A DNA stretch of 63,870 nt from Rozella allomycis CSF55 (taxonomy: Eukaryota). A program made the position numbers and the translations under genes. The stretch lies in the NCBI GenBank assembly GCA_000442015.1, contig KE561216.1, positions 1 to 63,870 on the forward strand, read 5' to 3'. Of the stretch, positions 4,432 through 60,441 are shown piece after piece (positions within the stretch are counted from its first letter, which is position 1; every line of letters starts with the position of its first letter). A model generated the notes under the pieces. It had not been told where the DNA came from. It did not search any database and saw nothing but the letters and a program-made list of their open reading frames with translations.

Positions 4432-5664
4432 ATGTTTGTACTGCGCAATATGCAGCGAGTGCGTCCATGGACCCGAGTATTTTCATTCGCTAAATCGTAT
4501 TCCACTACTGCAAAACTGCCAGTGCCTAGTAGAGTGCCGTTAAGCGATGAAGAGATTCAATCGCTTCAAATGAGTTTAAAGACACATAATCTGAAGCCTG
4601 AAGAGCTGATCAAGGGAGAAGTTGATGTGGTCGATTACCATGAAGCTAAATATTTGGTGGTGGGTGTTGATTATGATGAAGCTGATGAAAAGTTTGATCC
4701 TGCCAAGGTTAGTTTGGAAGAGGCTATGGAAAATATTAAAAAGTAATTAATCGTTGTGGATTTGAATAGGTAATTGAACATTAGTAGATTTGAATAGGTA
4801 ATTGAACATTAGTAGATTTGAATAGGTAATTAATAGCAGTCCTTTTGAATAGGTATGATAATGTTGGAAAGAAATTGTTGTATAATGAAGCAGCTTATCA
4901 TAAATTTTTGGGTGATTTCACTCAAGAATTGATGAGCAGGGGTTATCCAGGTTCAGGGTTAGTTGGTCCGATTGATGAGCATTCAGGTCTTTTCAAGAGT
5001 AATTAAAATAAAAGAGATATAAAAAGAACAAGTGTATGAAAAATTTGCCGAGGCGAAGATTGAATGGTTTAAAGGGGATACAACGTTGCAAAAGACGAAT
5101 AGAATGTTTACATGGTTTGGATTTTTTTCGTATCTTTTAGCAAATCAATATTTTCCTGTTCATGATCAATTGTTGGAACTTTCAGCTTTATTCTTTGCGA
5201 TGAGATTTATGAAGAAATTCTTCTTTGGTGATCAAGTCGTTGCGTCAATCAACACACACAGCAATGAAAGAGAAACGTTTATGAATCCTTTAACGAAACA
5301 GTTTGCTGAAATGGGAAAGAATGCGAATAAATTTAAAACTTTTGCATTGTTTGGAAAGATGAATGAAGATTTGTTTTCAATGATTAAAGAGAATTTGAAA
5401 GAGGAAGGGAAATTGATGGAATTGAAAGAGAAAAATGTTAAATTGACGGAAATTAAATCTCAGCTGGATAGAAGAGCCCGCCAAGATGTTGAAAAGAAGA
5501 GACAAGAAAGAATTGAAATTCTTCAAACTCTTCATGCAAGGGTTTTGGAAAGAATTAAAGATGAATCTTTTGTAAATTTCATAAACTTTAATTAATTTTA
5601 GCAAGAAAAGTTTTTAAGTCAATGTTTATCTGATCTCAAAAATTTGGCTACAAAAGCTAAATAA
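4432..5664 (+). CDS. ATP4: Mitochondrial ATP synthase subunit b (Atp4/ATP5PB), 354 aa as modelled
   Basis: Presequence-like N-terminus; exons 4432-4742, 4853-4998, 5027-5571, 5602-5664; C-terminus EIKSQLDRRARQDVEKKRQER...VLERIKDESFQEKFLSQCLSDLKNL resembles subunit b. Confidence 0.7.
4743..4852 (+). repeat. Intron made of four abutting GT..AG units (27, 28, 28, 27 nt)
   Basis: GTAATTAATCGTTGTGGATTTGAATAG|GTAATTGAACATTAGTAGATTTGAATAG x2|GTAATTAATAGCAGTCCTTTTGAATAG. Confidence 0.9.
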
Positions 5665-5713: not shown

Positions 5714-6382
5714 CTAAGCCCCAAATTTAGATCTTTTTTCAATTTTAAACAAAACTTCATCTAGAAATTGATCTAATCTAATACAGCCTAAACAACCATT
5801 CTTCAAAATGCCTTTAGATTTAATTTCTCTCACACCATCACATCTCACTTTGCCTGGACAAATATAAGTTAACGTCCATTCTATCGACAGTCCTTCTTCA
5901 CATTCAAAAGATTGTTTTGGTCTCCATCTCCTCAAATGTTCTGGAATGCATTTCCCTTCAACAATCTCTTCAAACGCCACTTTTCTTTCTTCATCATCTA
6001 GTCTTGTCAATATAGCCACAAACAACTCACTATCTGTGCTATTTAAATATGTATCAATGTCTTTATAATTATGTATCAGTGTCAAATCAGCATCTCCTAT
6101 CGATTCCACAACTGGTATTCCCAGTTGTACAGCAGTCTCATTCCATTCTCCATCCTGATCAACAATTTCAATCTTTATCCCCTTCCAAATAAACAATACA
6201 ACTTCATCTTACCTCTTCTCCTCCCACTCACAATCCCCATTCCTAGTCCCATCCTTCAATCCAAATATGCCAAACAGAGCCTTCCCCAAATGCTGCTCCC
6301 TCACCGCCAAATGTCCACTCGCACAATTCCCCACCAAATACTTGCTCTCTCTCCTCTCCTGCATAAAAACACATCCCCGCAT
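5714..6382 (-). CDS. Uncharacterised conserved protein ending ...FLDEVLFKIEKRSKFGA
   Basis: ATG 6382 (MRGCVFMQ...), one short intron joins it to ORF 5714-6196; the C-terminus recalls a plant/basal-fungal DUF ending in KYGA (from memory, unverified). Confidence 0.55.
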
Positions 6383-6405
6383 CAAAAAACTGTCTCAGCC
6401 ACTTT

Positions 6406-7518
6406 ATGACCGTCGGCACGAAGCAGTACGACGAGCGGCTCAGGCAAGTTATAGAGCTATGTTTCAAAAAGCTTGACGAGCTGTCTACTGGCGCATCTGA
6501 TCGCATGGTTCATTTCGACCGGTTCAGTGAAACAAAGTTCAAGACGGATTTAGGTAATGCGGGTGCGGTTGGTTGATGTAGAATATTTTTCAAAGACGCT
6601 GCTCGATAAGGCGGCAAAGTTTGCGCTGGTGGGGAGACTGCCGAATCCGGCTGTGTCTGAGGCGCTTGGGCTGTTGGAAACTTTGGAGCTGTTTGTAAGG
6701 ACTTTGACTGTAAGGAGGTTATGATTGTTTTGAATAGATTTTGGTGTTGACGATACCAGAGTCGAGGGGTAAATTGTTTAGAGATGATGTGAAGAGTGTG
6801 TGCACTGATCTGATTAAAGGTGAGAATTTTTGTTGGCGTTGATAGGAATCGCTTCGTTGATTAATCCGTCATTAGAAGAACCTTTGGATACGCAGATGCA
6901 TCCGGAACATCTGTTTGCTAATCATAATGCTATTTTTGATGTTTGTGAGAGAATGAAGAATCTAAGCTACAATAATTCAATGGCTATACAGAAACGATGG
7001 GACGATAGTATGGAGTTGCTGCAGGATGTAATTAATGAGATGGAGGAGCTGCAGAACGATGATGGAATGTTCGATTTCGATGATTCTGCCTTTGAAAAGG
7101 AAGGTAAATATTCATTTAAAATATAAAAGGTTCCCCATTGACGGATGATGACAAGGCGATGGTTAAAAGATGTTTAGCGATTGTTAAATTGACTAAAATT
7201 TTGTTCAAGAAATTGCTTGTTAGATGCATTAAAGATTGTCAGCCAAACACTGAAGAAAAAGTATCATGGCTTGATCAGTTGTATGAAACGTCTAAAAAGG
7301 TTCTTGAAAAAGTTGATGATTTGGGTGTTTCGCTGCATGAGACTTGCAATATTCAAATAATTTGTTTGCATGCAGCTGAACTGACGGATGTTTGTGCGAA
7401 AATTATTGATGTTGCTAAACTTTTAACTTCAGAAGAGCATTTGTCTTGGTTTGAGAAATGTGGCGATCAATATCATAGAGTTTTAGTCTCCATTCTAGAA
7501 AGGAGTCCACAACGCTAA
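6406..7518 (+). CDS. Grap2/cyclin-D-interacting (GCIP/CCNDBP1)-like helical protein
   Basis: Multi-exon; WDDSMELLQDVINEMEE and WLDQLYETSKKVLEKVDDLGVSL motifs. Confidence 0.6.
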
Positions 7519-7584
7519 TCGCTAACGCTAAATGCTTTAAAGATCTTTTTGCTAATGTAAACATAAAATACTTTATTAAAGTGA

Positions 7585-8843
7585 TTATTTTCTTTCTTTA
7601 GTTCCAATTTTCAATCTTTGAATGTGATTCATGATTCTCTTGTATCGATCAGGTTGCTATATAAAATATATTAAGAATATTATTACTTTATCCTTTAATT
7701 CATCTAGAGTAACTTTAGGTTTTGGTCGAATGACGTAATCATGAGCGGCTGGGGCTGGAATCCTAGTACCCTTGTAACTGGCGGGAATACTTTCTCTCAC
7801 ATTTGTTCTTTTAAAAGTATCCAAATTCTGTTCAGCCCTTGCTAAATCTCTGTAGTCCATGCTATGCCCGATAATTGGTCTGCTCCAAGTATCTTTTTAA
7901 CAATCAAGCAACCAATTACTCATTAGATTCAATGCCTGCTTTTTCAATTCGGCAGTTTCTCTTGGACACTTGTACATGAAATGGATAACCTTCCCTACTC
8001 CACTTTCCTTCAAATGATCCTTTTCAATAGGCAACTTTGCTAACACGCCAAGCAGAAACTTGCGAATGTCTAAACTAGGAAGAGAACCATCGTTCATTGG
8101 CTCCAACCACATTCTGATAGCCTCCAATATGCCATTGTCTAGAAAATGTTCGTATAAATCGCGTTTTCCTAATTCTTCTTCAACGAGACTCAACAATTTC
8201 AATTTCTCCAACGCAGGTTTCTTTTCTTGATTCAATTCGACATCTTTTATAGCAGCCATTTTCATCTTTTCTCTCAAAACTACAATCGCCTCATCGAGTC
8301 GCTTTNTGAAATCTTTTCTTTTATTTTACCACATCATCGTATGTATCTTTTCGCCTCTTTTTCGTCTTTTTAATTGCGTTAACAGCACTCTCAAATATTT
8401 TACGGCCTTCAATAACCTTTTCAGGTAAAGCTACTTCTTCTTGCTCTGGCTCCTTTTCCTTTCTTTTGCGTTTGCTTTGATAAAAAGTTATTNGATTAAT
8501 TAACTATTACGTCTTTTCTTTGGTATTTTTCTTGGCACCTGTTTTGCGTTTTGTTCTCCTCCTTCCATATTCTTCATCATCTTGTTCTTCGTCCTGTTCG
8601 TACAATGGCTGCACAGGTTCTTCCTGATCCTCTAGAAATTATATTACATGGATTATATGTACTTAATAGTTCCATAACTTCATCGTTGGGAATCTGCGGA
8701 ATATCGTCGTCTTTTAAATCATCGTCCGAATCACCAAAAATGTCTTTTTCTAAATTTTTCTATTATATTTTTTTCTAAATATTGTACTGGTTTATCTATC
8801 GTTCATTCTTGACGGTTATTTTACCTTGTTCTTTGTCGGACAT
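7585..8843 (-). CDS. IWS1: Transcription elongation factor IWS1/Spn1
   Basis: KPALEKLKLL, FLDNGILEAIRMWLEPMNDGSLPSLDIR, LKESGVGKVI, WSRPI; acidic N-terminus DIFGDSDDD. Confidence 0.93.
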
Positions 8844-8856
8844 TTGGAAATTTCGT

Positions 8857-10548
8857 ATGTTCCAAACCCTAACTTCAAAGTCTCAGTTTATAGATCTAAT
8901 AAGACAATATGAAGTTGTAATATACGATAATGAATTTAGATTAATCGATTATTTGCTAAGCATAATCGTCACTGAGAAATGTCTCGTGCGATTTCAACCT
9001 TTTGAAGACGATTTAGAAATAGACGAATCGTCAAAAGCCATATTACTATGTTGTTCTATTAATGAAAATCATAAAAAATGGTTAGAAGCTACGGGAAACA
9101 TTTCAACAATTACACTCGTACCAAGTGGATTAAAAGAATCGCAAAGCTTTGTAATTGCAAGCTTAGAATTGGCATTAAAAGAATCAGTTGAAAGAATTTT
9201 TGATTTTCCAACAATTTTTCCCTTATTTAATGCTGAATATGATATGAGTATTATTCAATTTCTTTCGTTCTATCTTTCAAGCAACTATGAATCCATCAAC
9301 ACGTATACAATTGGTAGTGGATCTAGCAATTTTGTTAATAAATTACAGCTAAATAAATACACTACAAATAATGGGAAAAGGTGTTCATTGATAATTTTTG
9401 ACAAGGTAACACTCAATTAATGAATTCACTTCAGCGTTTAGATTTAGCGTCTTACGCGCAACATTCAGACAATTTGATTGATCATGTAAAGAATTTATCA
9501 TGTGATGATGCTACTAACCATTTTCTTAATTATTTTGTAGAGAAAGATTATTCCACCGTTGATCAAAAGGAAGGGCTATCATTACTGAGAAAAAATGTTT
9601 TGGAAGTGCTTTCAGAGAATCTTGAAGACTTTAAACCGCCAAAGGTAAAAAATTGGAAAGTTAAATATAGATTTTAGGCAAGGTTACCCTCGCTCAACTC
9701 ACGAAATTTGCAAATTGCATCCCGCCAGAATCTCCACTTTGGTTTACACAAGCCAGGGTCTTAGAATTGTTACGGATTGTAATTAAATGTTTAGAATCAA
9801 GGTAATTACTACATTTTCTTTCCATAATAGTGAGCAACAACATTGGACGACATTGCTTGGCTTTGAAAAGATTCTATTCGCAAGTTTGGCTGAAAATGCA
9901 GCAACATCCATTGAGCCAGTTTTGGATCAACTATTGAACTTTATTTCAATGTCAACGACAAAGACTTCGGGTTTACCATTTGAAAAACTTTTATGCTTGA
10001 TTGTTTACACGTATTATTTATCTCCCGCTCATTTCATTGATTCCAGTAGGTATAAAGAATGCGAAGAAAAAAGGGCGTTGAAACTTGAGGCGTGGCACTG
10101 CGTTTGCTATCCAGAAATGCAACCAGAAAACGCAAGACAAAAGATTCAAAATTTCTTCAAAAAATTAAGAGCTGGATGCCGCGAAAGATATTCTCAAAGT
10201 TCTGTGATTAAACCAATTGTAACCCCAGAATCAGGGACTCCGTTTTACAAATCATTCTTTACCAGTTTTATGGAAAAGTTGACAGATCAGACCTTGCCTG
10301 ACGTTCCAGGCGTTTATCAAAATGAATCAAGAATTCCTAATGTTCTTGGCTCTTATATAAGCAAAATTGTTAAACCGAATTCATCTGTGACGCATCCAAT
10401 GGCTGCAGATGCCGTTTATGTTGTAGTTTTGAGTGGATTGACTGCATGGGAATTAAAGCAGTCGCTTCCGTTTGTCAATGAAAAGATCAAGATAATCAAT
10501 TTAGGATACTGCACTCAAACTGATCTAATTCAGCAACTCTTAAACTAG
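8857..10548 (+). CDS. Sec1 family domain-containing protein 2 (SCFD2/MIP3-like)
   Basis: SLIIFDKRLDLASYAQHSDNLIDHV and C-terminal YVVVLSGLTAWELK resemble the divergent Sec1/Munc18 member SCFD2. Confidence 0.6.
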
Positions 10549-10672
10549 TCTTCTCATTTTTAAATAAATTATTACATTGAATAAATTGAAAATATTATAT
10601 GAATTGAAAACAATTGTTTCAAAAGGTCTTAATTTGAATTGACTGAACCCAAGCCACAGACAGCGCCTTGAG

Positions 10673-12082
10673 ATGACCAAATTATCGCCCGTTGTTATTG
10701 ATAATGGTACTGGGTAAAAATATTAATTTCAATTTACAGATACACCAAATTGGGTTTCGCTGGAAATTCTGATCCGCAATTTATTATCCCTTCAGCGATA
10801 GCAGTTAAAGAGACCGCAACGAGCATAAACCGCACAAGAAAAGGCATTGAAGATTTAGACTTTTACATTGGCGATGAAGCATTTGCGAACCAGAAAACGT
10901 ATTCGCTACAATACCCAGTGCGACATGGGCAAATTGAAAACTGGGATTTGATGGAGAGATATTGGGAAAAGTGTTTGTTCAAGTATTTGAGATGTGAGCC
11001 TGAAGACCATTATTTTTTGTTGGTATAATTTGTGTGGTTGCTGAATTAGACGGAACCACCATTGAATGCGCCAGAGAATAGAGAGTATACTGCAGAAATC
11101 ATGTTTGAAACGTTTAATGTGCCTGGATTGTATATTGCGGTGCAAGCAGTGTTGGCTCTGGCTGCATCTTGGACGTCGGGCAAAGTTGTGGAGCAAACAT
11201 TGACTGGGACTGTTATTGATTCAGGCGATGGAGTGACGCATATTATTCCTGTAGCGGATGGATATGTGATTGGCAGTGCAATTAAACATGTCCCGATCGC
11301 TGGACGAGACATTACGTATTTTGTGCAACAGATGCTGCGTGAAAGGGAGCCGACAATTCCGCCTGAAGATTCGCTTGAAGTTGCGAAAAGAATTAAAGAA
11401 ATGTACAGCTACGTCTGTCCTGATATTGTGAAGGAATTTAAAAAGTATGATCAAGAAGGAGAAAAGTATTTCAAGAAATATGAAGGGATTCATTCTGTAA
11501 CGAAAAAGGTAAAATTTGAATTGATGAAATAATTAGCCATTTTCAGTTGATGTTGGCTATGAAAGATTTCTTGGGCCTGAAATATTCTTTAACCCTGAAA
11601 TTGCTTCATCTGATTATCTAACGCCTCTTCCTGATATGGTTGATAGAGTTATTCAACAATGCCCAATTGATACACGCAGAGGACTTTACAGAGTAATTTT
11701 ATTATTATTTTGTAATTGAATATTGTTCTTTCAGGGGGATCTACAATGTACAAAGATTTTGGGAAAAGACTGCAAAGAGACGTCGGGAAAATTGTGGATT
11801 ATCGATTGCAAAAAAGCATGGAGATTAGTGGAGGGAAACTTCAAGTATTTTAAATTTTATTTCTTTAATAAAGTCGACACCAATTGATGTTAATGTTCTC
11901 AGTCACAAGAAACAACGCTACGCTGTTTGGTATGGTGGAAGTTTATTAGCTTCAATGGTAATTTTAATGTTCATTGAACACTAAAGGATCAATTTTATGG
12001 ATACTGTCACACTAAAGCAGATTATGAAGAATATGGACCAAGTATTTGCAGACATAATCGTGTATTTGGAACAATGAGTTGA
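10673..12082 (+). CDS. ARP3: Actin-related protein 3 (Arp2/3 complex)
   Basis: [76 protein letters not shown]. Confidence 0.97.
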
Positions 12083-12187
12083 AATAAATCAATTTATACT
12101 TTTTTATCGTTTTAAATATATATTTTAATTAAATATCTAATAGTATATGTCCAACTTTGATCAAAACCTCAAAACATTTATTAAATA

Positions 12188-12991
12188 TCAAAATTGACTT
12201 TGTGATTCCGTATAAAAGTTTAAATCTTCTTCTGAAAATCCCACAGTCTCTAAAATAGTTCGCAATGATGGACGATCCCCAGCAAACTCTTCACGATGAA
12301 TCATCCAGAAATCAGTTCCATTTGGATTCACAATCGCAACCCCACCAAGTTGACTGAAATTATATCCCAATTTAACTACTTACAAAAAATTTCCTTGATA
12401 ATTCTTAGTTAGAGATGCACCCGCGGCAAGTGCAAGCTAACGTGAGCAAGGATTAATAAACTTACCATTGCCTGATATCCCTTTGAGTTTAACAATCCAA
12501 ATCCATTAGAAAGTTCTATTAAATAATCAAAAATACTTCTACTCAATCTTCTAAAATTCATAATATCAAAAAATGCAGCATTGTCAGTTGCATCAATCAT
12601 CACATCACCCGCAAAATATTTATCACTTATGAATTCTTCGTATCCTAATTCTTCGACTCCGATCGCTATTAATTTAATATTTCGTTTTTCTAGTGTCTCT
12701 TTCAGCGATGACAATTCCAACGCCGTCAGTCTACGGAACCCTCACTTGCATCATTTACCTGCAAATCCCACAACCGAATCGTCTGAGAAATGTAAGGATA
12801 ACGGCACCCGAGCCGGGAACAGACCCTTTACCTATCCGTGCCTGCTCCTCCACAGTCGGATGCGGAAGAATATCATCAACTGTAATAACGGTTTTTACAG
12901 GCGGCTCCTTTGAATTAGGTCCAAGTTCAATTTTAATCAATTTATAGCGCCTGATCTTTTCTAGCAGGTTTTGCTGCCCAAGGTCTTTCAT
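12188..12991 (-). CDS. Peroxiredoxin-like 2 / prostamide-prostaglandin F synthase-like (AhpC-TSA_2)
   Basis: FLRRFGCGICR (CxxC), LIAIGVEELGYEEF, QLGG, HREEFAGD. Confidence 0.85.
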
Positions 12992-13075
12992 CCGAAGGAC
13001 CGAAATTTCGTTAGATAGTAGAACTAGAAAGAACAAGAGATCTAGAATGATGTGAAAATTTATTCAAAAGGATTC

Positions 13076-13614
13076 AGTGAAAATCAATTTTTGACAATGC
13101 GTTGAAGCTATTCTTATTTGAATTGATGAGTGTTACGCCTCGTCGAGGAATGTTTCTAGAGTTATCATGTTTTCTTTGAATCCTTTGGGTGTCATTGATG
13201 CATTAGTGGCGCCTAAATTCTTTAGAGCTAGATTTAAAGCTACAAATTCCTTACCTTGCTCATATTGCTCAAAGGAAATGTATCCTTTTCTTGTAACATC
13301 TAATGTTTTAAATAATGCTGCTATATCATCTCTGTTAAAAACTAGAATGGGAGGCTAATTAAATAAATGTCATTTTCATACTTGACCTACCCGCAATTCT
13401 TTGAATTGTTCGTATAGCTTTAATTGTTCTATGAGAAACGCTTTAGGGTTCTCTTTTTATTTATAACACAATATAGNTATTTATAATACAGTATAGCAAT
13501 ACCAGGACGATAATACAAAAGCGACGACATCATTCTCTCAAACAATATCGGCACATTGTGTTTTTCAAAGTATTCTTCAACCTGTTTCTTATTTTCCAAA
13601 TCATCAGACAACAT
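13076..13614 (-). CDS. EFCAB10-like protein (RIIa/Dpy-30-type docking domain + EF-hand)
   Basis: EEYFEKHNVPILFERMMSSLLYYRPENPKAFLIEQL then LFKTLDVTRKGYISFEQY; 3' end approximate. Confidence 0.7.
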
Positions 13615-13701
13615 TGGCAATGTTTTTGTTTTCTTTCCAATTACATATTGATGTAACCCTTGCAATATTTAAAATNATAGGTAACCCTTGCAGTATTTAA
13701 A

Positions 13702-14852
13702 ATGACCAGCGAGATTCCCGATACAGCAGAACGAGATCCAGCGTATTTCTCGTATTATGGAATGATTACCCATCAAGTATATTTTACGTCTAGTTGAAAT
13801 AGCAAAACATGCTGCAAGATTATATCAGAACGGGAAGCTACCATACAGCGATCACTACCAACCCTTCAGATTTCAAAGACAAGGTTGTTCTTGATGTTGG
13901 TGCAGGTTCGGGAATTCTGTCGTTTTTCTGCGCACAAGCTGGTGCCAAGAAGGTGTATGCCGTTGAAGCTAGTCCGATGGCAAAGTTGGCGGAAAAGCTG
14001 GTGAAACAGAATGGACTTGAAGATGTGATTACTGTTATCCAGGACAAGGTTGAGAATTTGGAGCTGCCTGAAATGGTGGACGTTATTGTTTCTGAACCGA
14101 TTGGCGTGCTTTTAGTTCATGAGAGAATGATAGAAAGCTTTATTTTTGCAAGAAATAAATTTTTGAAAAGAAATGTGACGGAAGAATGCACATGCCAAAT
14201 GTATCCATCACGAGGATCTATTTGCCTTGCTCCATTTTCTGATGCCCCATTGTATACAGAGCTGATGACTAGATACCGATTTTGGGAGCAAACTGGTTTT
14301 TATGGCGTTGATTTGACCGGTTTGAAGGAAGATGCGTTCCAACATTATTTTGAGCAGCCGATTGTTGGGACATTTGATGCAAGGACGCTGATGGCTAATC
14401 AGGTGAATAAAGACTTTGATTTTCATTGGATAAACGCGGATGATTTAATAGAGTTTGAAATACCGTTTGAATTCAAAATGAATTTTACCGGGGTATGTCA
14501 TGGCATCGCTGGTTGGTTTGATTTAGCGTTTGAAGGGACTGACTTTTATGCGACCCTGTCAACATCGCCTGCACATGAAAGAACACATTGGTATCAAATT
14601 AGGTTTGTATTCTCGAACCCATTAGCTATTAATATTGGTCAAGTTCTTAAAGGAGTGATGAAATTCAAAGTGAACAGCCATCGAAGTTACGTGATAAAGA
14701 CAGAAGCTGAGATTGAAGGAACTTGCGTGAAAATTGATTGTTCTCATAATCTTCATGAGCAGCAATACTCATTTTTGAACCCTACAAATGATATTGACTT
14801 GAAACCAGAATCAATTTGTCTTTATTCGCCACCCACGTTAAACAAAAAATAA
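13702..14852 (+). CDS. CARM1: Protein arginine methyltransferase CARM1/PRMT4 (catalytic core only)
   Basis: YFSYYG...QQNMLQDYIRT, VLDVGAGSGILSFF, IVSEPIG, THWYQ. Confidence 0.92.
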
Positions 14853-14879
14853 ATTATTTTAAAGAATAAATTAATAAAA

Positions 14880-16170
14880 TTACAAAACGTTTAAATGTTT
14901 AATGACTTGTTCGAGAGCGTAATCAAGACTTGTTTCATTTTGAGTTGACGATGTTGAATATTTAAACCTTTCAATGTCATTCACTATTTCAGGTATAGAA
15001 GAAATCATTGAATTTGAATGATAACTTTTTATGCTCTCGTCATCTCTAAAGTTTGTCAAAAATGAATCCAAAATTGGGGGATTGTAATCGGTGCCGATCG
15101 CCTTGTCTTCTTTTCCTGTCGTTTGTATGAATCTGCTTTCTTTTTTCTTCTGATTGGTATGACCCTGGTTGCTGGGTTTACTTTCAGTTTGAGTGGCCAA
15201 CGATTTTCGATTCTTTTGTTCTTCAATTAATTGGTAAAGAGAATACTTAAATCTGTCGTCTTTGGGAAAAGTGGATAGTTTAAAGATGTCGTCTAATTCC
15301 TTTATAGTCTCATTTGAATCCATAGAATCATCTTTCAATTTAATACTGGACTGTCGATGAACAATTGGTTGAACCTCTTTGACTGGAGGTACTTCTGGGA
15401 TGAGAGGCGGTGATGCGCTTGGTGTGGAAGGAATTGTTGTTTTATTGTAATCTATCGGTGGTAAAAAATCTTGTCTAGGAAATGGATCTTGGCCCATAGG
15501 AATTGGTTCAAACACAAAGTCTTCTGGTGGAACTTTCCGATGATCGCGAGTTGAAGCATTTTTTGTTGCCATTACATCGTTATCTATAGACTTGGTTGTT
15601 TCCTTTTCATCTTTATCTATCGATTTGGTAGGTTTAACATTTCTATTAGAACTATTTAAAATGGTTTTCTCCAATTCAGTCACCTAACTTTAATTACCCA
15701 AACCTAACCACACCTTTGCAATAAATAGTTCCTTTAGTTCTTTTATTTCATTCTACATCCCCAAAATAGTTTCTACTTACATTCACAAAATCAAATCCAT
15801 TTTCTTTTCCCTCGCCTTTCTTTCTCGCCTTTTTTATTAGTTTCAAAGTAGTTAAAAGTCTTTCATATCTAATCTTAAATTCTCATCTAAATAGCAGGAA
15901 ACAATTACGTGTGAGCTCATTTTCAAGATTTTCCTTATTCGCTGTCAACTTTAGCAATCCTTCTTTTTCTCTTTCCAATGTTTCCAAAAGTTCTTTGTTT
16001 TTCCGTTCAGAAAGAGCAAGTTCCTTTAGCAACCTGGTAAAATGTGTTTGGTCTATATTGCTTCTGATATTTGGCCTTGAAGGCCTTCTTATATTTGATC
16101 TGTTTTCTTCTATTTGGGCAGCTAATATTTTATCTACAGATTTGTCTCTGAATTCCTTCCAATGAACCAT
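14880..16170 (-). CDS. Hypothetical coiled-coil / proline-rich protein
   Basis: ORFs 15883-16170 and 14880-15683 joinable through short GT..AG introns; no family recognised. Confidence 0.6.
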
Positions 16171-16199
16171 GTTTTGCCCGCCTTTTGTGGCTTAAACTC

Positions 16200-16636
16200 A
16201 TGAAAGACTTTTATAGAGTTTTAAACATTGATTTTGAAGCTGCTACTCACGAAATCAAGAAAGCTTATCAAGAAAGATTATTAAAAGTAAATTTAGCCAT
16301 CTTTTATTACAGATACACCCAGATAAAACCGGAATATACAATGGAACTGTAGCGATGGAAATTGAAGAGTTAAAAGAGGCACTCAGTACCCTATCTGATT
16401 CGAAAAAGCGGCATTTATATAATTCAAAACTTAGAACCTACTACTCGCGGAATGAAGTAATTTACACAACGTTCACAATTGACGAATACGTCAATGATGA
16501 ATCCGTGGGCTATTGCAGATGCAGTGGATCATTCGTTGTTGATGTACCAGACTGCTATGATTTATTTGCATCCGGTCTATCAGAATTAATCGTGCCATGT
16601 GATTCTTGTTCCCTGCACTGTTCCATCCGAAAGTAA
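16200..16636 (+). CDS. DPH4: Diphthamide biosynthesis protein 4 (J-domain + CSL zinc finger)
   Basis: MKDFYRVL...EIKKAY...HPDK; CRCSG and CDSCSL. Confidence 0.9.
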
Positions 16637-16650
16637 ATTTCTGAAATCCA

Positions 16651-17691
16651 ATGTTGGATGCACCGCAGGAAAACACCAATAAGACAACTCAAGTACTTGT
16701 ACAGTGATTAGTTTATAGCCACCAAACAATAATAAACCTCGTTTTGAAAGAAAGTACATTGTTATTCCCAGATGCTATGTCCAGTCTGGCGATGAAGTTC
16801 AGTTTAGTGTCAAACTTCCTCTTATATATTCTGGAATGGTAAATGGGTATGAAATAATTCCATAGTTTCCTTATGAGAATGAGCTGACTGATTTCATTGT
16901 AGAATTGAACTCGGCGCTAAAATTGATTACAAGCGATCACTTTGAAAACGTTATTTATTCTATTTTATCGTTTCTCACATTCCATTTGTCGTCTCTTATC
17001 ATTAATTCAAGAACCGATAGAGTAAAATTGGTGAAGGTGTGCAAACTAGTTCCTGTACCGCATTGATGAAATTGTCAGTCGATGGAATAAAATGTGCTTT
17101 GCTTCCAAAGGATATAAAATCTTAAACCCCAAAATCCATGGCTTTTGCCATCTTGTAATAGAGAAAATGGAAGAAAAGCTGAACAATAGTCAGAGCGGGG
17201 TTCCTAACTTGGTATTTATTATTTTTTTTCGATAATAGCATGATGAAACAAAAGAATTTCCTTTAAGCGTATTAGAAAACCCTCAACATGAAGATAAAAG
17301 AGGTGAAGTAAGTGAGACAGAATTAGAAAAGAAAATCGAAGAAAATGTAGAAAATTTAAATGAGGGCCTTGATACCAATCAAAAAGAAGTATTGCCAAAT
17401 GATCACGATGAAAATGCAAAATGCGAGGAATCTGAAAAGCAGGTCAATTTAGAATTGGATACAATTCATGAAAACCAAAGCAACTTAGATGAGCGTTTAC
17501 AGGTCGATGTAAAAGAAAATGAAGTCAATGTTAATGAGGACAGTCTTTCTCCAGTGCATCAAGTAAACAACACAGACCAAGGCCAAATTGACCTTATCAC
17601 CGAAGAAGTCACGGGACTTTCATACCGTAAGGGTGAAAAAGAAAATGAATATGATTCGAATGTCAAGAATATTTTCGAACAAAACTCCTAA
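16651..17691 (+). CDS. Erf4/Golgin A7-domain protein with acidic C-terminal extension
   Basis: IPRCYVQSGDEVQFSVKLP...ELNSAL...SILSFLTFHLS...GYKILNPKIHGFCHL, assembled through 4 short introns and continuing into ORF 17392-17691. Confidence 0.6.
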
Positions 17692-17867
17692 TAAGAAAAT
17701 AGATGTAGAAAAACGGTTCAAATTAATAAATTGTTTCTCAAGACTCATTATTTAAGAATGCTTGTTGAAACATACTTTATATTGCTCCGGAGATTCAACT
17801 TTCCATCATCTTTATGCTACGACAACTTTTTTTGATATTTCGAATTTGTTATAAATCTGTTATAAAA

Positions 17868-19080
17868 ATGGATGAAAACGATCTTTATCAATTTCGAGAA
17901 GAATGGAAAAAAGAAATCGGCATACAAGAAAATAGTACAACGTCTGTAGCTTCAACCTCGAAAGAGGGCATTCAAGATATCAACAAATCTGAAAAGAGTG
18001 TTCACTGCTATAGAGAGGCTACAATTTTAGAAAGACAAGGAAAACTAAACGAAGGTACAGGGCAAAGATATTTATAATAGCTCTAAAACTTTATAGAACA
18101 GCATTTAAACTCAGTCCAAACGTCGAACAACTAATTAAGGACATGGGCTCTATAAATATAAATGAAGATACTAAAGATATTAAGCCTGAAGTTAAATCAT
18201 ATAGCGAATATTTAAATCTGCAGCAAAAAGCAAAATTTAAGCCTGTTTTAGAAAACGAATTCGCGAAACTAATTGATGAAGTTTGTCAGGAATATTCAGA
18301 GCAAATTTTTCTGCCTGCAGGTAAATATTTTGTTTTAACGAAACAGAAATCATGATTAAAATCTTTCAGGCAATATCCTTGGTCAGTTTGAAGTCCCTGT
18401 GTGATTGCATGCTTGTGTGTAAATCGTGGTTGGTACTTGCTAATGACCAATCAGTTTGGAAAACAATTAGTTCAAAATACCATTCCATGAGAAATATAAA
18501 CGATTCTGACAATTTATCCCCGCTGTTGGAAGAAATGAGGACTTCAAAGGAGGATAACCTAAATGCCGAGTTGGATAATCATGTAACTTCATATATGAAT
18601 TCATTCCGTGTTCTCTTCAAATATAAGCCTAGGGTACGCTTTGATGGAATATATATTTCAGTGATACGGTACATGCGCCAAGGGGAAGCAGAAAATTCGT
18701 GGTATTTGCCTGTACATACAGTTACTTATTTTCGATATCTCCGATTTTTAAAAAATGGGGACGTGCATTCACTTTTAAGTAACCATGAGCCCAGTATTGT
18801 CGTCCCAAAACTCAAAAGCAACACTAAGGTAGATCATCTACTTTCTGGTCGGTGGATCAAAGAAAACGACAAATTACATATCGTTGTTTCTGACCCAAAC
18901 AGTAAGAGAATCGCCGGCTATTGCATGACAATGCAAATACAGTCCTCACATCAGGCATTACATGGAAAGTTAGTATGGGAAGAATATTACACCGTTACAA
19001 AGTCTAATGAAGTAACCCACTACCCATTGAAAATGCTCAAACCTTTTATTTTTTCTAAAGTTAAAAGTTTCGATTACTAG
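17868..19080 (+). CDS. FBXO9: F-box protein FBXO9/Hrt3/Pof7
   Basis: LYQFREEWKKEI, KPRVRFDGIYIS..YMRQG, VHTVTYFRYLRF, FIFSKVKSF. Confidence 0.88.
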
Positions 19081-19123
19081 AGTAGAAAGTATTAAACAGA
19101 CCATTCGTAAATTTCATAAATAA

Positions 19124-19960
19124 ATGTCAAGTAAAGATTCTAATGATTTAAGCTTGATATCTCACAATTATTCGGAACCGTACTTTGTATAATTTTTAGT
19201 TTTAGAAATCACGATATTAATGAACAGTTAAATCTACGTATAGAACACCTCAAGAAGACAAAGCGTATTCTTGAAACTCAGTGGGAAAGTTTGTATTTTA
19301 AACCATGCATGGCAAGTTTAGTATTATACATTACTTTTAGCAACAAGACTCTATATATTTTTGATGAGATCGTAAAAGACATAGTGGCCAACTCGGTTCT
19401 GAATTATGTTCAAGAAGATATGGAAAAGAACTTAACATGCGACAAATGTAATTTAAAGTAACTTTTTCATGGTTTTTAAGACATAGTTGCGGAGAATTCG
19501 GTAATAAAAGATTTTCAAATTTCAATAGCTGAAAAGCCCGGCTATGATGTTTATGGTCAACGATTGTCTATGGACATTACTGAATCGGTGAGTTGTCCTG
19601 TCTGTACCAGACAAGTTGCTGTCACTAGATTTGCACCACATCTGGAGAAATGTATGGGACTGAAAACATCTAGAGTCGCCAGGATAAAAAAGTATTTCAT
19701 GTTGAATTATTTAATAAGACCTGACGGACTTTCATTATCGCAGAAAAATGCCGATGATGGAGATGATGTTCACGAAGATGAAGACTACGATAGTCTTGAG
19801 CAAATGGATCAGGATGATACTTACAGTGAAAGAAAAAGTAAGTTTATTTTAAATGTCCTAACGTTTAGAAAGAAAAAGAGTAATCATTTATTTTAAGCCA
19901 GAAAAAGAATAATACAAACAGGAGAAGGAAGAAAAAGGATGAAGATATTTCCAGTCAAAG
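19124..19960 (+). CDS. SGF11: SAGA deubiquitination module subunit Sgf11/ATXN7L3
   Basis: Zinc finger CPVCTRQVAVTRFAPHLEKCMG; 5' exons and 3' end approximate. Confidence 0.8.
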
Positions 19961-20162
19961 TCAAGCTATTGAATAACTTCTCTTTTTATTAGTTATTACA
20001 TTGAAACAAATTAATAAAAATTCGACACATGCAACAATATATGAAACCATTTCAACATGAAACAATCGTTGATTGGTTGGTTTCATTGGGGGTAGCTTTT
20101 GATTGGTTCCTGAACAATATAAAATGATATATTTGTACCCCTTTCTGCAACAAGTAGCAAAC

Positions 20163-20705
20163 ATGAAAGTCTTTGCAATCCTATCACTTCTTTCTTCTTT
20201 AGCCTTCGCTCACCCACAAGCTCCGGCTGATAACAGCGGCTATCAAGACCTCACAGTAAGTTTCCATGCCGAATATTATGGCACAAGTGCAGTTCCACGA
20301 GCCGTTACTTTACACAATCTACAGTGCACAGATAGATTTGTCGGTCCTGGAGATGGAATTATCAATTCTGAGATCATGTATCAGTACACTGAGGGTTTAG
20401 GATATCATATGCTTGCCTCCGCTAGTCCAAGTTTTACATGTGGGGATTGCCTGGAGTTTAAAAACAAAGCTGATGGCACTAGAGACTGGGGAATGGTCAT
20501 TGACCAAGGTGGCGGTGTTCTCGATCTACATCCAGATCTTTTTGTAAAGGTTGTTCCTGACAGAGGTACTGGCGCCCAACCGTATCCATATTTTGATGCG
20601 CAAGCTGGTCAAAGATTTCTTGGAATTGGAACAGGGACGGTCTTGGTAAGAAAATTACAGCCTGGCGACGAATTGTATAATCAATGCATATTTTACAAAA
20701 AATAA
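20163..20705 (+). CDS. Small secreted barwin/RlpA/expansin-like double-psi beta-barrel protein
   Basis: Signal peptide MKVFAILSLLSSLAFA; CGDCLEFKN..G....MVIDQGGGVLDL matches the CGxCxxV...VDxxxxxLDL pattern; intronless. Confidence 0.7.
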   Translation: MKVFAILSLLSSLAFAHPQAPADNSGYQDLTVSFHAEYYGTSAVPRAVTLHNLQCTDRFVGPGDGIINSEIMYQYTEGLGYHMLASASPSFTCGDCLEFKNKADGTRDWGMVIDQGGGVLDLHPDLFVKVVPDRGTGAQPYPYFDAQAGQRFLGIGTGTVLVRKLQPGDELYNQCIFYKK

Positions 20706-20807
20706 ATGGTAAATTTTGCATTAACATTGATATGTTATTTTTCAAAGAATACATTGAAAGCTCCGGGTTAATTGAGTAAAATTTGAAATTCTTTACATTA
20801 AACTAAT

Positions 20808-22187
20808 TTATACTTTTGATTTACTTGAATCTATCTTCTTGAATACTAGCTTTGAGTTTTCCTGTTCAACAGCAGTTGACATGGTGTGTATCTGACCAAA
20901 CGCATAAAGGTAACGCCTCTGACTAATACAACTAAAGAGTAAAACCATTGTAGTTAAGAATGGAGAGAGGTAAAAGCTGTATACATCTCGTCTGAATTGA
21001 AGCACAATAGAAGGGGTCCAAAGCATTAAATGACATAAAAGCAAAAGACATGGATGCATTGCGGTAAGTGTAATTGTACTTAATACAGCCAATAGTGCAA
21101 TCTTGTGAACATATGCACCATCAGACCTCTCGATTACAAAGTAGTAGGAATAAATAAATAGCAATGAAGCTTCAATAAAATAAAACAAAATAACGAACGC
21201 TTGGATTTTGGTTATTTGATGCAACTTTTGATCACGACATTTTAATTTTTTAGAAATAAAAACCCAAGATCCGTACAACGCAGCGAAAGCAAAAAAGGAG
21301 ATAAATGGATACTGAAAATTATATTTTGATAACCCATTGAAATATAGAAAAGACATTGTAAAGAAAGAAGAAGAAAAGAAGCCATAATTGAAAGGCTCCA
21401 TTAAAGCTTGAGCTTCCCATTGTTTCACTTGATCGTTTTTTACAGAATGCTTGAAACTTATTACTTCTTTAAATGACAATTCCTTGAATTTTGGAACAGT
21501 ATATTTGATCCTTGTAAAAATATGACGCCGATAACAATCAACTAATAATGAATAATATGCTAATCCAATGTTCGCTTCTTCAACCAAATTTAATTGCAAT
21601 CCATAATTTTGATTTGTTAAAAGCAATATAAATCTAACAATGAAAGAAACAGCCAATCCAAGTTTGCATGCCATGTAGGACATATCACACCCTTTGTACA
21701 AATAAAGGGATGCCACAAGCGTTGAAATCACACAAATAGAGCCGTCATGGTAAAAGAATTCTGCGTACAAATGCGGTATAATGCAGCCACTTAAAGAAAA
21801 CACAATCCCCAAACATTCCAACATATCTATAACTTTCATTTTAAAGGCAAAGTGTAGAAATACAGCTGAAAAGTACGCTACAGCCACTGCTATGAGACAA
21901 TACACTCGAACGGAAAATGAAAACGATTCCAAAGGCATACCATCCATGTATACTGAACTGAACATATCGTACCCAATAAATAACATTGCCAAAAACATAA
22001 CAATAAAGAATCGTTTGGACAATTGCACATTATACTTTGCTCTAAAATCACGCTCCTTTTTTGGATCCTTTGCAATAAGTGTGATTACATTTAATTCCAA
22101 ATATTCAGCAGAAGCCACGATATTTTCTCCAAATATCCGCTTGAGTACATACAAGAGGTAAAAGTACAATTGACCAAAAACGCCCAT
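20808..22187 (-). CDS. Intronless multi-pass membrane protein, unknown family
   Basis: 459-aa ORF with roughly 11-12 hydrophobic segments in two clusters. Confidence 0.7.
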   Translation of the reverse strand: MGVFGQLYFYLLYVLKRIFGENIVASAEYLELNVITLIAKDPKKERDFRAKYNVQLSKRFFIVMFLAMLFIGYDMFSSVYMDGMPLESFSFSVRVYCLIAVAVAYFSAVFLHFAFKMKVIDMLECLGIVFSLSGCIIPHLYAEFFYHDGSICVISTLVASLYLYKGCDMSYMACKLGLAVSFIVRFILLLTNQNYGLQLNLVEEANIGLAYYSLLVDCYRRHIFTRIKYTVPKFKELSFKEVISFKHSVKNDQVKQWEAQALMEPFNYGFFSSSFFTMSFLYFNGLSKYNFQYPFISFFAFAALYGSWVFISKKLKCRDQKLHQITKIQAFVILFYFIEASLLFIYSYYFVIERSDGAYVHKIALLAVLSTITLTAMHPCLLLLCHLMLWTPSIVLQFRRDVYSFYLSPFLTTMVLLFSCISQRRYLYAFGQIHTMSTAVEQENSKLVFKKIDSSKSKV

Positions 22188-22331
22188 CGGGAATTAATGT
22201 GGCCCAAAGATAACTATAGCATAAATTAATATAGCAAATAATTGTGTTCAAAAACCCGCAAATAGATATTACTGCAAGTCCAACAAACCAAGTAATCCAA
22301 GCCACGAGAAGACAAGGGTCAAGAAAAAAAC

Positions 22332-23824
22332 ATGAGTAGTGTAGCCGACCAACAACGTTCTTCTGATTTTATGATAAAACCATCTACTGAAAAGCCAGTA
22401 TTAGATACATCGAAATGGCCTCTTTTGCTCAAAGTAGAAATATATTTATTTTGTGATAGAATTATGACAAACTTAATGTTCGCACTTCCCACTATACACC
22501 AATTCCATGTGGACATTCTCCTTTACAACGTCCTTTGAAGGAATATTTGAGGTAAATATTTTATTTTGAAGATAAAAGATATGGAGTTATTAATCTTGAT
22601 AAGCCAGCGAATCCATCTTCACATGAAGTTGTTGCTTGGATTAGAAGAATATTGAAGGTGGAAAAGACTGGACATTCTGGTACTCTTGATCCAAAGGTTA
22701 CAGGGTGTTTGATTGTGTGTATTGACCGTGCAACCAGATTAGTGAAATCACAGCAAAGTGCTGGAAAAGAATACGTCTGTGTTTTGAGATTGCATGATAA
22801 AATTGAGTCTGAAAAGAAATTGTTGAATGCGCTTGAAACTCTTACTGGAGCATTGTTTCAAAGACCTCCATTGATTTCAGCTGTGAAGAGACAATTGAGA
22901 GTTAGAACTATTTATGAATCAAAGCTTATTGAATTTGATAATGAAAGACAATTGGCAGTCTTTTGGGTTTCATGTGAAGCTGGAACTTATATTCGTACAT
23001 TGTGTGTCCATTTAGGATATTTGTTGCAAGTTGGAGGACACATGCAAGAGCTTAGACGTGTTAGATCTGGTGCATCAACTGAAAACGAAGGGATGGTAAC
23101 AATGCATGACGTTTTAGACGCACAATGGGTTTTTGAAAATCAACGTGACGAATCTTACTTGAGAAGAGTTGTTAGACCATTAGAATCATTGCTTGTTGGA
23201 TATAAGAGAATTGTTGTCAAGGATAGTTCCGTTAATGCTATTTGCTATGGAGCTAAATTGATGTTGCCTGGTGTTCTTCGCTATGAATCTGGAATTGAAG
23301 TCAACACTGAAGTTGTTTTGATGACCACTAAAGGTGAAGCTATCGCTCTTGGTATCGCACAAATGACTACTGCTGACATTGTTTGCTGTGATCATGGTGT
23401 TGTTGCAAAGATTAAGAGAGTCATCATGGAAAGAGACACTTACCCACGTAGATGGGGATTAGGTCCTAAAGCTCAATTGAAAAAGTCAATGATTAAAGAT
23501 GGAAAATTAGATAAATATGGACGTCCAAATGAAAAGACTCCAGCTGATTGGAAGAAGAGTTACGTTGATTATCAAAGGTACTAATCATCTATTCAATTAA
23601 AAAGGGATGATAATGAACTCTCCGCTAAGTCAATTGTAGATGAGATTCAACAACAAAAGGCAGCAGAAGAACCTGTTGAGTCAATTGAAGAAAAGCCAGT
23701 TGAAAAGAGAAAGGACTTAACCGACGACGAATCAAAGCCAAAAAAGAAGAAAAAGGATGAAACTGAAGAAGAAAAGGCTGAACGTAAGAAAAAGAAGAAG
23801 GAAAAGAAAGAAAAATCTCAATAA
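22332..23824 (+). CDS. CBF5: H/ACA pseudouridine synthase Cbf5/dyskerin
   Basis: [28 protein letters not shown] domain, K/E-rich tail. Confidence 0.97.
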
Positions 23825-23908
23825 GAAATTTCATAAATTTATTTCACAAATTTACAACTTTTTTGTCACACTTCATTGAAATATTTTTCTTCTATTTACA
23901 TGCATCAT

Positions 23909-24995
23909 CTACTCTAACAATGAATCTTTAATTTCAGATATAAACTCTAATTTCAGTTGCAAAGGTATATGTTTTTCATTAAGCCAATAAAACTTGCCAT
24001 CATGTAGTCTCTGAACATTATATTGAAAAGATAAAACATTGGAAGGTGACTTTCTTATGCCAAATATCGTTGGTTTAAAATCCCTTTCAAAATTTACGTG
24101 GCTTCCATACGTCACCCTCCCAGACACATTTTTGATCATTTCTTTGTTTGGTGAAGATGACAAGGATCCATTCATTTCCAGTTTTTGTTTATCAGATACA
24201 GATTTATTCAATTCTTTGGGCTTTTCTTTGGAATACTCAATCGATATCAAACTCTCGACTTTATGTTTCTTCTTGTCGTTTTCATTTTCTTCTTCCTCTT
24301 CATCAAGAACTCTCTTCTTTAAAATCCCCTTTCTTTCTGTTTCCTTTGTTTGATTTTTTGAAACAACAATCTCTTCAGAAAATGAAACTCTTCGTTTTCG
24401 TTGCAATTTTGAAACTGACACATCATCAATATTTTCTTCCCTCGTATATCCTTTCGTGCTTATTCTTATCTGCTTTTTATNTTCTGATCTGCTTTTTATC
24501 CTTTTCTTCGTTTAATACCGGTGATTCTGTACTAGGGTGAGTTATTCCATCATCCAAATCTTCTTCCTTCAATAAAGGGCCTTCATCCAACAATTCATCA
24601 ATATTTGTTTCAACTGGTTCTTCCTCTTTCATTTGATACATCTCATTAGCATTCCATCCTTGTCCGATCTGTGCCTTTAGCTTCTTCCTACCTTTCCCCT
24701 TCTTTTCCTTTGCCAAGTGCTTCAAATTCTGGCGACCTTCGGTTTTCGCAATGTTCACCCACTCCTCGCCCTTCTCAGCTTTCACCCGTGCCCAAAATTC
24801 TTCCCGTAATTCCGCTGATAGATTTGTAGCGGGCTCCCATGTATCGTCGGCTTCACTATAGCCGTACCAGCGAACTCTGTATTTAAACCCACCATCTTCA
24901 AATTTGTAGTCTACAATTTTATCAACAAAATACTCATCCTCCTCTAATACTTGGATATCTTCGTCAACTTCAGGTGGTGGTGCTGGTTTCGGCAT
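23909..24995 (-). CDS. Chromodomain protein (HP1/Swi6-like layout; frame broken at assembly n 24481)
   Basis: YFVDKIVD...[21 protein letters not shown]; charged linker; possible chromo-shadow-like C-terminus. Confidence 0.7.
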
Positions 24996-25126
24996 AAACT
25001 TTCTTTATGTTCGACAAGGGTTTCTAGAGTTAATATAATTGGCATTCAACTACAACTATAATTAAAATTTTTAAGGGTCTTTGAATTAAATGGAATGTGA
25101 ATTAACAGTTTATTATCGGCTTCACT

Positions 25127-25696
25127 TCACACAGCAAACATGAGTGGAGAATTGTGAAAATGTGGAACTGGGAGAAATGGATCGGCTTGAAGATGTCGTT
25201 CAAAATTATATGCAATGCTATTCTTCAATTCCAAGTCAGATATTTCAGGAAGATGGATTTCAATGCTTTCTGCTTCCTCTTCTTCGTTGTAATATATTTG
25301 CCCTGATTTTGCAAATTCAATGATTGAATCTGGAACAGCTACTGGTGGCTCCAATTCAAAATCTACTAATTATATATAAATCATCAAACCTGTAGTCCTG
25401 CATTTTGGAAAAAATCCCACATCGTCTTCAATGTCGGGTTTACTTGATTTTGATACTTGGATTTGCTTTGTGAATAAAGCATTCTTTTTGATTTTATTGA
25501 TATTGCTTTTTTCCTTGATGCCTGATGAAATTGTCTTTGGAGTGTTAACATTTACAACTCCTAACGCTGATCTGGTACTTTTCACAGGATTGGCGGTCTC
25601 AATCATTTTATTCGAAATAGATTTTGGCATTTGTTTACTAGCCAAACCCTGTTGTAAATTCTCTTTATCCAGAGCACTAGAAAGGTACTCGCTCAT
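25127..25696 (-). CDS. KEN-box/D-box protein, candidate securin
   Basis: DKENL, RSALGVVNVN, PDIEDDVGFFP, acidic C-terminus with LPE; one short intron. Confidence 0.45.
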
Positions 25697-25788
25697 TTCC
25701 AAAATTTCCGCCAAAAATTCATTGAAAAACTTTCGAGAATACGTAAAAGAACTAGAAAAAGTAAACACGTTTATTTAGCTCAAACAAT

Positions 25789-39399: not shown

Positions 39400-39840
39400 T
39401 CACGCGTTTATTGTTGCCTGTTTGATTGAGAGGCGTTTCATATAACAAGTGACACTGATCAAATGGACAGTGTAACCGTTCAAGTCACGATAATACTCGT
39501 TGTCCTGAATTTGGTTGAAAGCAACATCACATTCATGATCAAAGTTTCTATTATCTTCGCAAACGCTGAACTCCATAATGAATACCTTTTTCGTGTGAGG
39601 AAAAGTAATTCGAACATGGCAACGACCTTCAATACCTTCCATTCTTGATTCCACGATTACATTTTGTCCATCATGAATACACGCATGGAAAATGCCAAAA
39701 AACAAACAATGATATGCAGCCACAGGAATTCGAATTTTTTCATGCGATTCACGATTACGCCACTCAATTAGGATTAAATCATGAGCGAACGAGTTAACTA
39801 GAATTTGTCGCATCAACACTTTCAAGGCAGTTTCATCAAA
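39400..39840 (-). pseudogene. Partial duplicate of the C-terminal domain of the AAA/PD-(D/E)xK gene
   Basis: High identity to 39982-40421 with several substitutions; truncated at n 39841. Confidence 0.7.
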
Positions 39841-39981
39841 NATAACCGGAAACAAATAATATCACTATAAATGGTTACTAGCTTGTCAGAGGCCATTCGG
39901 TCAGATATTGCCAGTTTAAAAGGTTAAACATCAACCAAAATAGCATATTATAAAATAATAGATCGATCAAGAATAAGCTAT

Positions 39982-41649: not shown

Positions 41650-41785
41650 TGTGGCGTAATCATGATTCTTGAACCTAGTTACCTGTATTTTAAGAATTGA
41701 ATTTATGCATAAAAATTTTAGATATTTAGTGACTAGTGTGGTATTTGATATCTAATAGTGGCTGATTGTTTTGAAATCTCATTAC

Positions 41786-53054: not shown

Positions 53055-53251
53055 ATTTCTTTTTCAAATTTTCATATATTGAGTTCAGGAAAGCGCTTGC
53101 TGCTGTATATTCCTTCAAAAACACGGAGCACAGACGAAGTTTTTAAGTCGTACCATTAACATCTACGATTTTGATAGAAATTGTAGTTCTAACTAGCGGA
53201 AGTTCGAAAATTCAAAATTCATGATCTGGGTTTACTAAGCCACAGAAAAAA

Positions 53252-56233: not shown

Positions 56234-56659
56234 AGAAATAATTTAAAGTTATTAGAAATATTAATATTTTTTAATTTTATGCGTTTCGTTTGATTCCATG
56301 TTTCCTATCATCAAAGATCAGACACTAAAATATCTATAATCTTTATCAAGGTCAAATTTAGTAATTTCTAGTCTGGCTCTGCTGATATTCAAAAGTATAT
56401 TCAAAATATTTCATACTCATACATCGTATCCTGTTTGAACAATTTCTTGTGATACACGCGCAGCGCACTTGCCACTTGTTGCTCTTAAAGAGAATTATGA
56501 ATGTATTATATCATTATAGTGCTTTGATTACAAAATTTGGAAAAAAATCCCAGATATATTATGGAACAATGATAATTTGATTTTGAAATTTACATCACTG
56601 TAAACGCGGTTTGCAAGTCTTCTTCTCTTCATTTGCAGGATTATGGCTGAGATCTATTC

Positions 56660-60140: not shown

Positions 60141-60441
60141 AGGCCCAGATTTTCTCCTGCATGGGATCATTTTCCGAAAGTTTTTTTAGTATGGAGGACT
60201 GGAAATTACAGATCTATTAATTTTCCCAGGTAGTCAGACGACGATGGCATTTGTGATCTACTGACAGCATTTCAAATGCGCTGGGTTGTGTAGAATAATG
60301 GATTTTGTAAATTTGACCTGGATTTGAAGATTACTGGCTGCTGTGATGGTGCTAACAGTCGGGAGATACTATTTTTAACTTGTGGCGTAGTGAAACATGG
60401 GGCAATATAGAAAAAGTTTTGTTATTCTCAACCCTGGTCGC

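Follow-up and report, generated by a model that had tools for sequence, protein, structure and literature searches.

We analysed a 63,870-nucleotide stretch of contig KE561216.1 from the fungus-like parasite Rozella allomycis CSF55 (hereafter the window). Its G+C content was 33-43% in 2-kb windows, it contained 21 single Ns, and it was gene-dense, with genes broken up by very short introns. An Rfam search of the window returned no match. We tallied introns within the window using a simple coding-potential gene model, restricted to models of at least 120 aa, which predicted 105 introns. Their lengths had a mode of 26-29 nt (64 out of 105), they mostly began with GTA (93 out of 105) and often carried an A at position 4 (51 out of 74), and their 3' consensus was A at -4, T or A at -3, and AG. 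Internal AGs as far in as about position 24-25 were skipped by canonical introns, as were TGs located 3-5 nt upstream of the AG. The available sections of an earlier study give a length of about 30 nt for R. allomycis introns and do not mention non-canonical ends (PMC6349667). No description of non-AG acceptors in Rozella turned up in the literature searched.

The window held several other features. At 4743-4852 on the forward strand, four intron-like units of 27, 28, 28 and 27 nt, each reading GTAATT...GAATAG, lay head to tail between two exons of one gene, representing either a mini-intron duplicated in tandem or a single composite intron of 110 nt. Three further intron-like units (31, 32 and 28 nt, each GTAA...AAATAG, the first two near-identical) lay in tandem at approximately 47857-47767 on the reverse strand, between two strongly coding open reading frames (ORFs). 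The region 39400-41751 (reverse strand) contained a 589-aa ORF that combined a Predicted AAA-ATPase domain (PF09820) with a PD-(D/E)XK domain (PF08011), followed by an ORF with PF08011 only; this family is mostly prokaryotic, and the region could stem from horizontal transfer or be a duplicated fragment. On the forward strand, three ORFs in a row, at 53225-56230, 56651-59701 and 60394-63474, lacked introns and encoded about 1000 aa each, in contrast to their intron-rich neighbours.

The gene of main interest encodes actin-related protein 3 (Arp3). Its 414-aa product aligned end to end with Arp3 from an aphelid, chytrids and Capsaspora, including a similar C-terminus. Exon 3 was 100% identical to the protein deposited as "Actin-related protein 3 [Rozella allomycis CSF55]" and 87% identical to aphelid Arp3. 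Exons 4 and 5 matched Arp3 chains (PF00022 actin fold) at E 2e-21 and 3e-12, respectively, whereas actins matched these two exons at E 1e-5 or worse only. The coordinates of this gene and of all introns discussed below are listed in the table.

Table. Arp3 gene model, introns and candidate TG acceptors in the window.
Feature	Position	Strand	Remarks
Arp3 gene	10673..12082	+	7 exons, 414 aa, ends with TGA
Arp3 exons	10673-10713, 10740-11022, 11050-11508, 11537-11692, 11719-11844, 11874-11957, 11987-12082	+	
GT...TG intron, Arp3, 26 nt	11693-11718	+	GTAATTTTATTATTATTTTGTAATTG; phase 0, separating an Arg codon from an Asn codon
Rival GT-AG intron, Arp3, 23 nt	11712-11734	+	in frame; in both deposited Arp3 models
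Canonical GT-AG last Arp3 intron, 29 nt	11958-11986	+	missed in both deposited models
GT...TG intron, U11/U12-35K (SNRNP35) homologue, 26 nt	28058-28033	-	GTATGATCTAACTTGCCAAGTAATTG; homology-backed
GT...TG candidate intron, DRC3 gene, 27 nt	26075-26049	-	in-frame TAA inside
GT...TG candidate, 27 nt	6212-6186	-	typical GTA...TG; upstream of Arp3; no deciding homology
GT...TG candidate, LIM-RhoGAP gene, 27 nt	37723-37697	-	typical GTA...TG; no deciding homology
Further TG calls of the coding-potential scan	29546-29515, 28236-28206, 27465-27440, 26662-26640, 15697-15677		

Exons 4 and 5 of Arp3 are separated by a 26-nt segment in the context TAC AGA, then GTAATTTTATTATTATTTTGTAATTG, then AAT ATT GTT CTT TCA. 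An earlier note, made from the sequence alone, had quoted these letters and stated that the segment contains no AG, that its retention brings in a stop and that the next AG shifts the frame, and all of this was accurate. There was no AG anywhere inside the segment, and hence no canonical GT-AG 3' end. Read-through (GTA ATT ... TGT AAT TGA) met an in-frame stop at 11717-11719, and joining the donor at 11693 to the next AG (11733-11734) would remove a 42-nt intron, out of frame. In alignments with solved structures, exon 4 ended at residue 315 and exon 5 began at residue 316 of 9dlz_A (328 and 329 of 3dwl_A). Because these chains align across the junction without a missing residue, the Arp3 mRNA must lack exactly 26 nt. 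Moving the 26-nt cut one base to the left left the protein unchanged but gave AG...TT ends, and other shifts altered conserved residues; the sole reading with a normal donor was GT...TG.

The residues at this junction are strongly conserved. The motif N[IV]VLSGG[ST][ST]M followed LY[KR] in all 104 full-length Arp3 homologues (104/104), and the TG-spliced product scored 831.1 bits against a profile of full-length homologues. We also compared 80 environmental Arp3 loci, obtained by scanning metagenomes for close relatives. Of these 80 loci, 66 contained the motif; LY[KRQ] stood directly upstream of it in 49 of these 66 and across an intron in 3, and was not matched by the regular expression in the remaining 14. 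Three environmental loci (L049-L051) had a 71-76-nt GT-AG intron at exactly the phase-0 K|N position of the Rozella intron, indicating that the intron site is old. None of the 80 loci was a close Rozella relative spanning the junction, the best one (87% identical) ending before it. The donor (GTAATT) and the length of the segment were typical of the organism, and its 3' end matched ordinary introns at -4 (A), -3 (T) and -1 (G), differing only at -2, where T replaces A. Judging from protein homology, the junction demanded by the mature Arp3 message would be the TG.

A second exact case was found in a homologue of U11/U12-35K at approximately 28264-27646 on the reverse strand, which matched PDB 8r7n_C (E 3e-19) and carried the GGKKESGQLRFGGRDR signature. 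Its first RRM exon, which by itself gave no match in Pfam or PDB, ends in NPQTNE, and EKLQYFFEKFG is the next conserved segment; removal of the 26-nt GT...TG segment joined the two without a gap. AGs at positions 20 and 31 flank the TG at position 26. Use of the first, as a 20-nt GT-AG intron (28058-28039), would keep the frame but insert "VI", whereas the 31-nt GT-AG alternative would shift the frame. The TG product scored 199.5 bits against a profile of 120 homologues, compared with 191.0 bits for the 20-nt GT-AG product, and none of the 118 homologues covering the spot (0/118) had an insertion at the junction. The AG located 5 nt past the TG looks good and is a likely competitor, which counts against TG. 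On this homology, we take U11/U12-35K to be a second exact GT-TG case. Separately, the homologue carries an insertion of 8-9 residues (IEIDVIRK) in its RRLGGG box that is intron-like, although it could not be spliced out in frame.

The third case lies in a DRC3 gene. The exon before position 26075 matched DRC3 at residues 405-433 (E 0.003), and the 26-aa exon immediately after 26049 matched DRC3 chains only (3 out of 3 matches), from residue 442 (E 0.0035). The next exon matched residues 481-513, collinear though weak (E 2.2). A homologue search with a DRC3 exon returned no match. Because the gap between the first two exons holds an in-frame TAA and no GT-AG segment of length 3n fits, DRC3 needs a non-AG acceptor. 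The homology allows lengths of 21 nt (ending in AA), 24 nt (AT) and 27 nt (TG), and the 27-nt option alone combines a modal length with a final G, making TG the likeliest acceptor.

Two further candidates had less to decide them. The one upstream of Arp3 has atypical rivals, namely a GTGAGT..AAG intron of 24 nt (6231-6208) or, as in a related deposited model (P0242), a GT-AG intron of about 120 nt. Among 1.84 billion representatives, the ORF adjoining position 6212 matched only a deposited relative that was 96% identical and had a third gene structure, plus two weak matches. For the LIM-RhoGAP candidate, the rival is an atypical 21-nt GTT..TAG intron at 37736-37716. We rejected two other calls: that at 4743-4776, made by the coding-potential scan, belongs to the tandem array of canonical intron units described above, and that at 39878-39853 lies in intergenic-looking sequence.

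Taking these cases together, the window contains roughly two exact, one probable and two possible GT-TG introns among about 105 predicted introns, or about 2-5%. The earlier note had mentioned four similar cases after Arp3. Those that we found downstream of 11718 were the intron of 35K, which proved exact, that of DRC3, which requires a non-AG end for which TG is likeliest, that of the LIM-RhoGAP gene, a candidate, and the segment at 39878-39853, which had to be dropped. The note's view that TG acceptors are routine here did not hold, with about three, and at most five, among some 105 predicted introns; they recur, but as a minority. TG accounts for 6.2% of intron-internal dinucleotides, and if non-AG ends were arbitrary, the chance probability of two further TG ends would be p ~0.004. 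The coding-potential scan gave no TG excess among end dinucleotides (TG 9, compared with AA 13, TA 12, GA 11, TT 10 and AT 9). Because these scans lack a TG excess and canonical introns skip TGs before AG, there is a clear preference for AG. TG is confined to introns that lack a suitably placed AG.

The public annotation offers a different junction for Arp3. The deposited proteins from two assemblies (P0001 and P0121, 392 aa each) use the 23-nt intron, which turns NIVLSGG into VILLLFW, and both end early because the last intron was missed. The statement in the earlier note that only a TG acceptor restores the protein therefore holds for the conserved sequence but not for the reading frame, which this 23-nt GT-AG intron, overlooked in the note, also restores. 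The intron is in frame, has canonical ends and was picked by two independent deposited annotations, and our coding-potential model likewise selected it. Its use, however, would break a motif kept in 104/104 full-length homologues, and its product scored 812.5 bits rather than 831.1, a loss of 18.6 bits against the profile of homologues. Moreover, the tail of the supposed intron, AATATTGTTCTTTCAG, encodes NIVLS(G) in frame, for which chance is no explanation. A length of 23 nt also falls outside the well-populated range: the 4 introns out of 105 with this length were the rival itself, two that contain an N, and one whose donor is GTT. Because a plain canonical last intron was missed as well, the deposited models were not based on RNA at Arp3. 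We conclude that both are wrong, at the 11693-11734 junction and at the C-terminus, and we regard it as unlikely that the public annotation is right in splicing Arp3 so that VILLLFW replaces NIVLSG.

To return to the TG junction, its acceptor base was compared with sequencing runs from four studies (X1, X2, X3 and X6, one each). All were analysed as DNA contigs and contained 69-84% of sampled words; an RNA run (X10) had next to none of the window's sampled words and was left out. Contigs from three studies spanned the site (X1, 10647-12320 without gaps; X2, 11158-13466; X6, 8538-12752), and X3, from the fourth study, had read depth over 11693-11718. As expected of DNA, intron-sized joints were absent from X1, X2, X3 and X6. 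The differences listed, apparently in order of position, included 11292, 11337, 11358, 11430, 11433, 11439, 12100 and 12110, and none lay between 11439 and 12100. At position 11717, which the earlier note had proposed to check in raw reads, the DNA contigs of the runs favoured T, with no difference listed at the site in the four studies. This constitutes strong evidence, not proof, among the differences listed, that the T at 11717 is genuine and no assembly error. Across positions 6150-26149, the four DNA runs and the window disagreed at numerous sites (about 0.1-1.9% per contig), with some differences common to X1 and X2 only and others to X3 and X6 only, a pattern that two haplotypes or sub-strains would produce.

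The acceptor might instead have been lost recently, through an AG>TG change or loss of an A, leaving Arp3 mis-spliced or non-productive, and decaying or poorly expressed. The intron end AATTG is indeed one change away from the common AATAG and AATTAG ends, and human AG>TG mutants splice at neighbouring AGs, according to the available sections of a study of human TG acceptors (PMC2374985). Against this, all exon 3 differences between the runs and the window, among those listed, fell at third codon positions (6/6), and P0001 and P0121 differed at only two residues, both conservatively (I/V and K/Q); because of this pattern, we consider Arp3 to be under purifying selection rather than decaying. 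The T at 11717 was identical across the four runs, among the differences listed, the 120 matches listed contained no second Arp3 from R. allomycis, and a comparable TG solution is called for in two or three other conserved genes, exactly in 35K and as the likeliest option in DRC3. A recent loss of the acceptor is therefore quite improbable.

Two readings are more doubtful still. The first is an assembly or sequencing error, position 11717 being in truth an A. The assembly does have local flaws, since the runs show small deletions at the two Ns near 8306 and 8493, but 11693-11734 is spanned by the X1, X2 and X6 contigs and covered by X3, the differences listed leave 11439 to 12100 free, and an independent second assembly gives an identical translation of 11693-11711, all of which makes an error highly unlikely. 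The second is that the segment is a U12-type intron, removed by the minor spliceosome and tolerant of odd 3' ends. Because the window encodes a U11/U12-35K homologue, R. allomycis probably keeps a minor spliceosome. U12-type introns can have non-canonical termini, and the distance from the branch point sets their 3' sites, which are variable in sequence; a non-AG 3' end and a position-dependent acceptor would thus be shared with the Arp3 intron. U12-type introns are defined, however, by a 5' RTATCCTT box and a TCCTTAAC branch box. The 5' end of the Arp3 segment, GTAATTTT, is unlike RTATCCTT, and the intron (GTAATTTTATTATT...) contains neither this box nor a TCCTTAAC-like branch box, as judged against these generally given consensus boxes; its 26-nt length and GTAA donor are those of ordinary introns in the window. 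We give the U12-type reading very little credence. A ciliate-type TA-bounded internal eliminated sequence was rejected, as the TA...TA segment is 19 nt long and does not restore the frame, and the organism is Rozella.

We infer the splicing of Arp3 because the protein family demands an exact junction, TG recurs in other genes and the gene is under selection. On these grounds, the segment at 11693-11718 is probably a spliceosomal U2-type mini-intron of Arp3 whose productive 3' splice site is TG rather than AG.

Comparison with human TG acceptors revealed both likenesses and differences. In the available sections of the human study, TG acceptors are minor alternatives next to AG and never an intron's sole site, account for about 0.01% of candidate motifs and occur in long introns, and AG>TG mutants activated neighbouring AGs, not TG (PMC2374985). 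By the human rule, as given there, Arp3 would therefore splice at 11734, which counts against TG (PMC2374985). The Rozella introns resemble the human TG-AG sites of those sections in having a GT donor in U2-type context, a TG end, a pyrimidine at -3 and a purine at +1 (PMC2374985). They also agree with the rule reported there that an AG lies within 28 nt: it stands 16 nt downstream in Arp3, 7 nt away in DRC3, and both 6 nt upstream and 5 nt downstream in 35K (PMC2374985). Unlike in humans, TG alone would yield the conserved protein in Rozella, the AG partners giving a frameshift or a damaged motif, and in contrast to the human figure of about 0.01% and long introns, the Rozella introns are 26-27 nt long and make up about 3% of the window's predicted introns. 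For the human TG-AG tandems, the authors propose in the same sections an early requirement for AG, with TG open to selection at a later stage (PMC2374985).

Tiny introns occur in other eukaryotes, including Paramecium (about 25 nt), Stentor (15 nt) and the nucleomorphs of chlorarachniophytes (18-21 nt). Rozella resembles these genomes in its sharply peaked intron length, AT-rich introns and GTA donor, features generally ascribed to them. To our knowledge, the introns of Paramecium, Stentor and chlorarachniophyte nucleomorphs are near-uniformly GT-AG.

How a TG might serve as the acceptor can be outlined as follows. In very short introns, what mostly fixes the acceptor may be where it lies, shortly after the branch region. 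The last G of an intron pairs with its first G in the second-step spliceosome, and the terminal G would be kept in Rozella, with A at -2 preferred and not obligatory. A nearby AG, such as that 16 nt downstream in Arp3, may aid early recognition, the TG then being used in the second step. At 26, 26 and 27 nt, the TG introns of Arp3, 35K and DRC3 have the modal intron length, and these lengths, together with the AGs flanking the 35K acceptor, are consistent with a choice set by distance. More broadly, R. allomycis may have relaxed the AG rule, such that, for a few percent of its introns of about 27 nt, located in essential genes, TG is the only productive acceptor, with the cut placed by position after the branch region and only the terminal G needed. 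We offer this wider reading tentatively, at slightly less than an even chance.

Few signals in eukaryotic gene expression vary as little as the AG that closes an intron. If conserved genes of this fungal relative depend on TG, then the choice of 3' splice site in very short introns would be looser and based on position. R. allomycis is the reference genome for Cryptomycota, a lineage widely used in fungal and microsporidian phylogenomics, and gene finders that allow only GT-AG introns will get a few percent of the gene models of the Rozella lineage wrong. If the relaxed rule is true and the window is typical, there would be hundreds of TG introns genome-wide. R. allomycis would then be the first eukaryote known to have GT-TG as a constitutive intron class, and would provide a natural system for AG-independent site choice in the second step of splicing.
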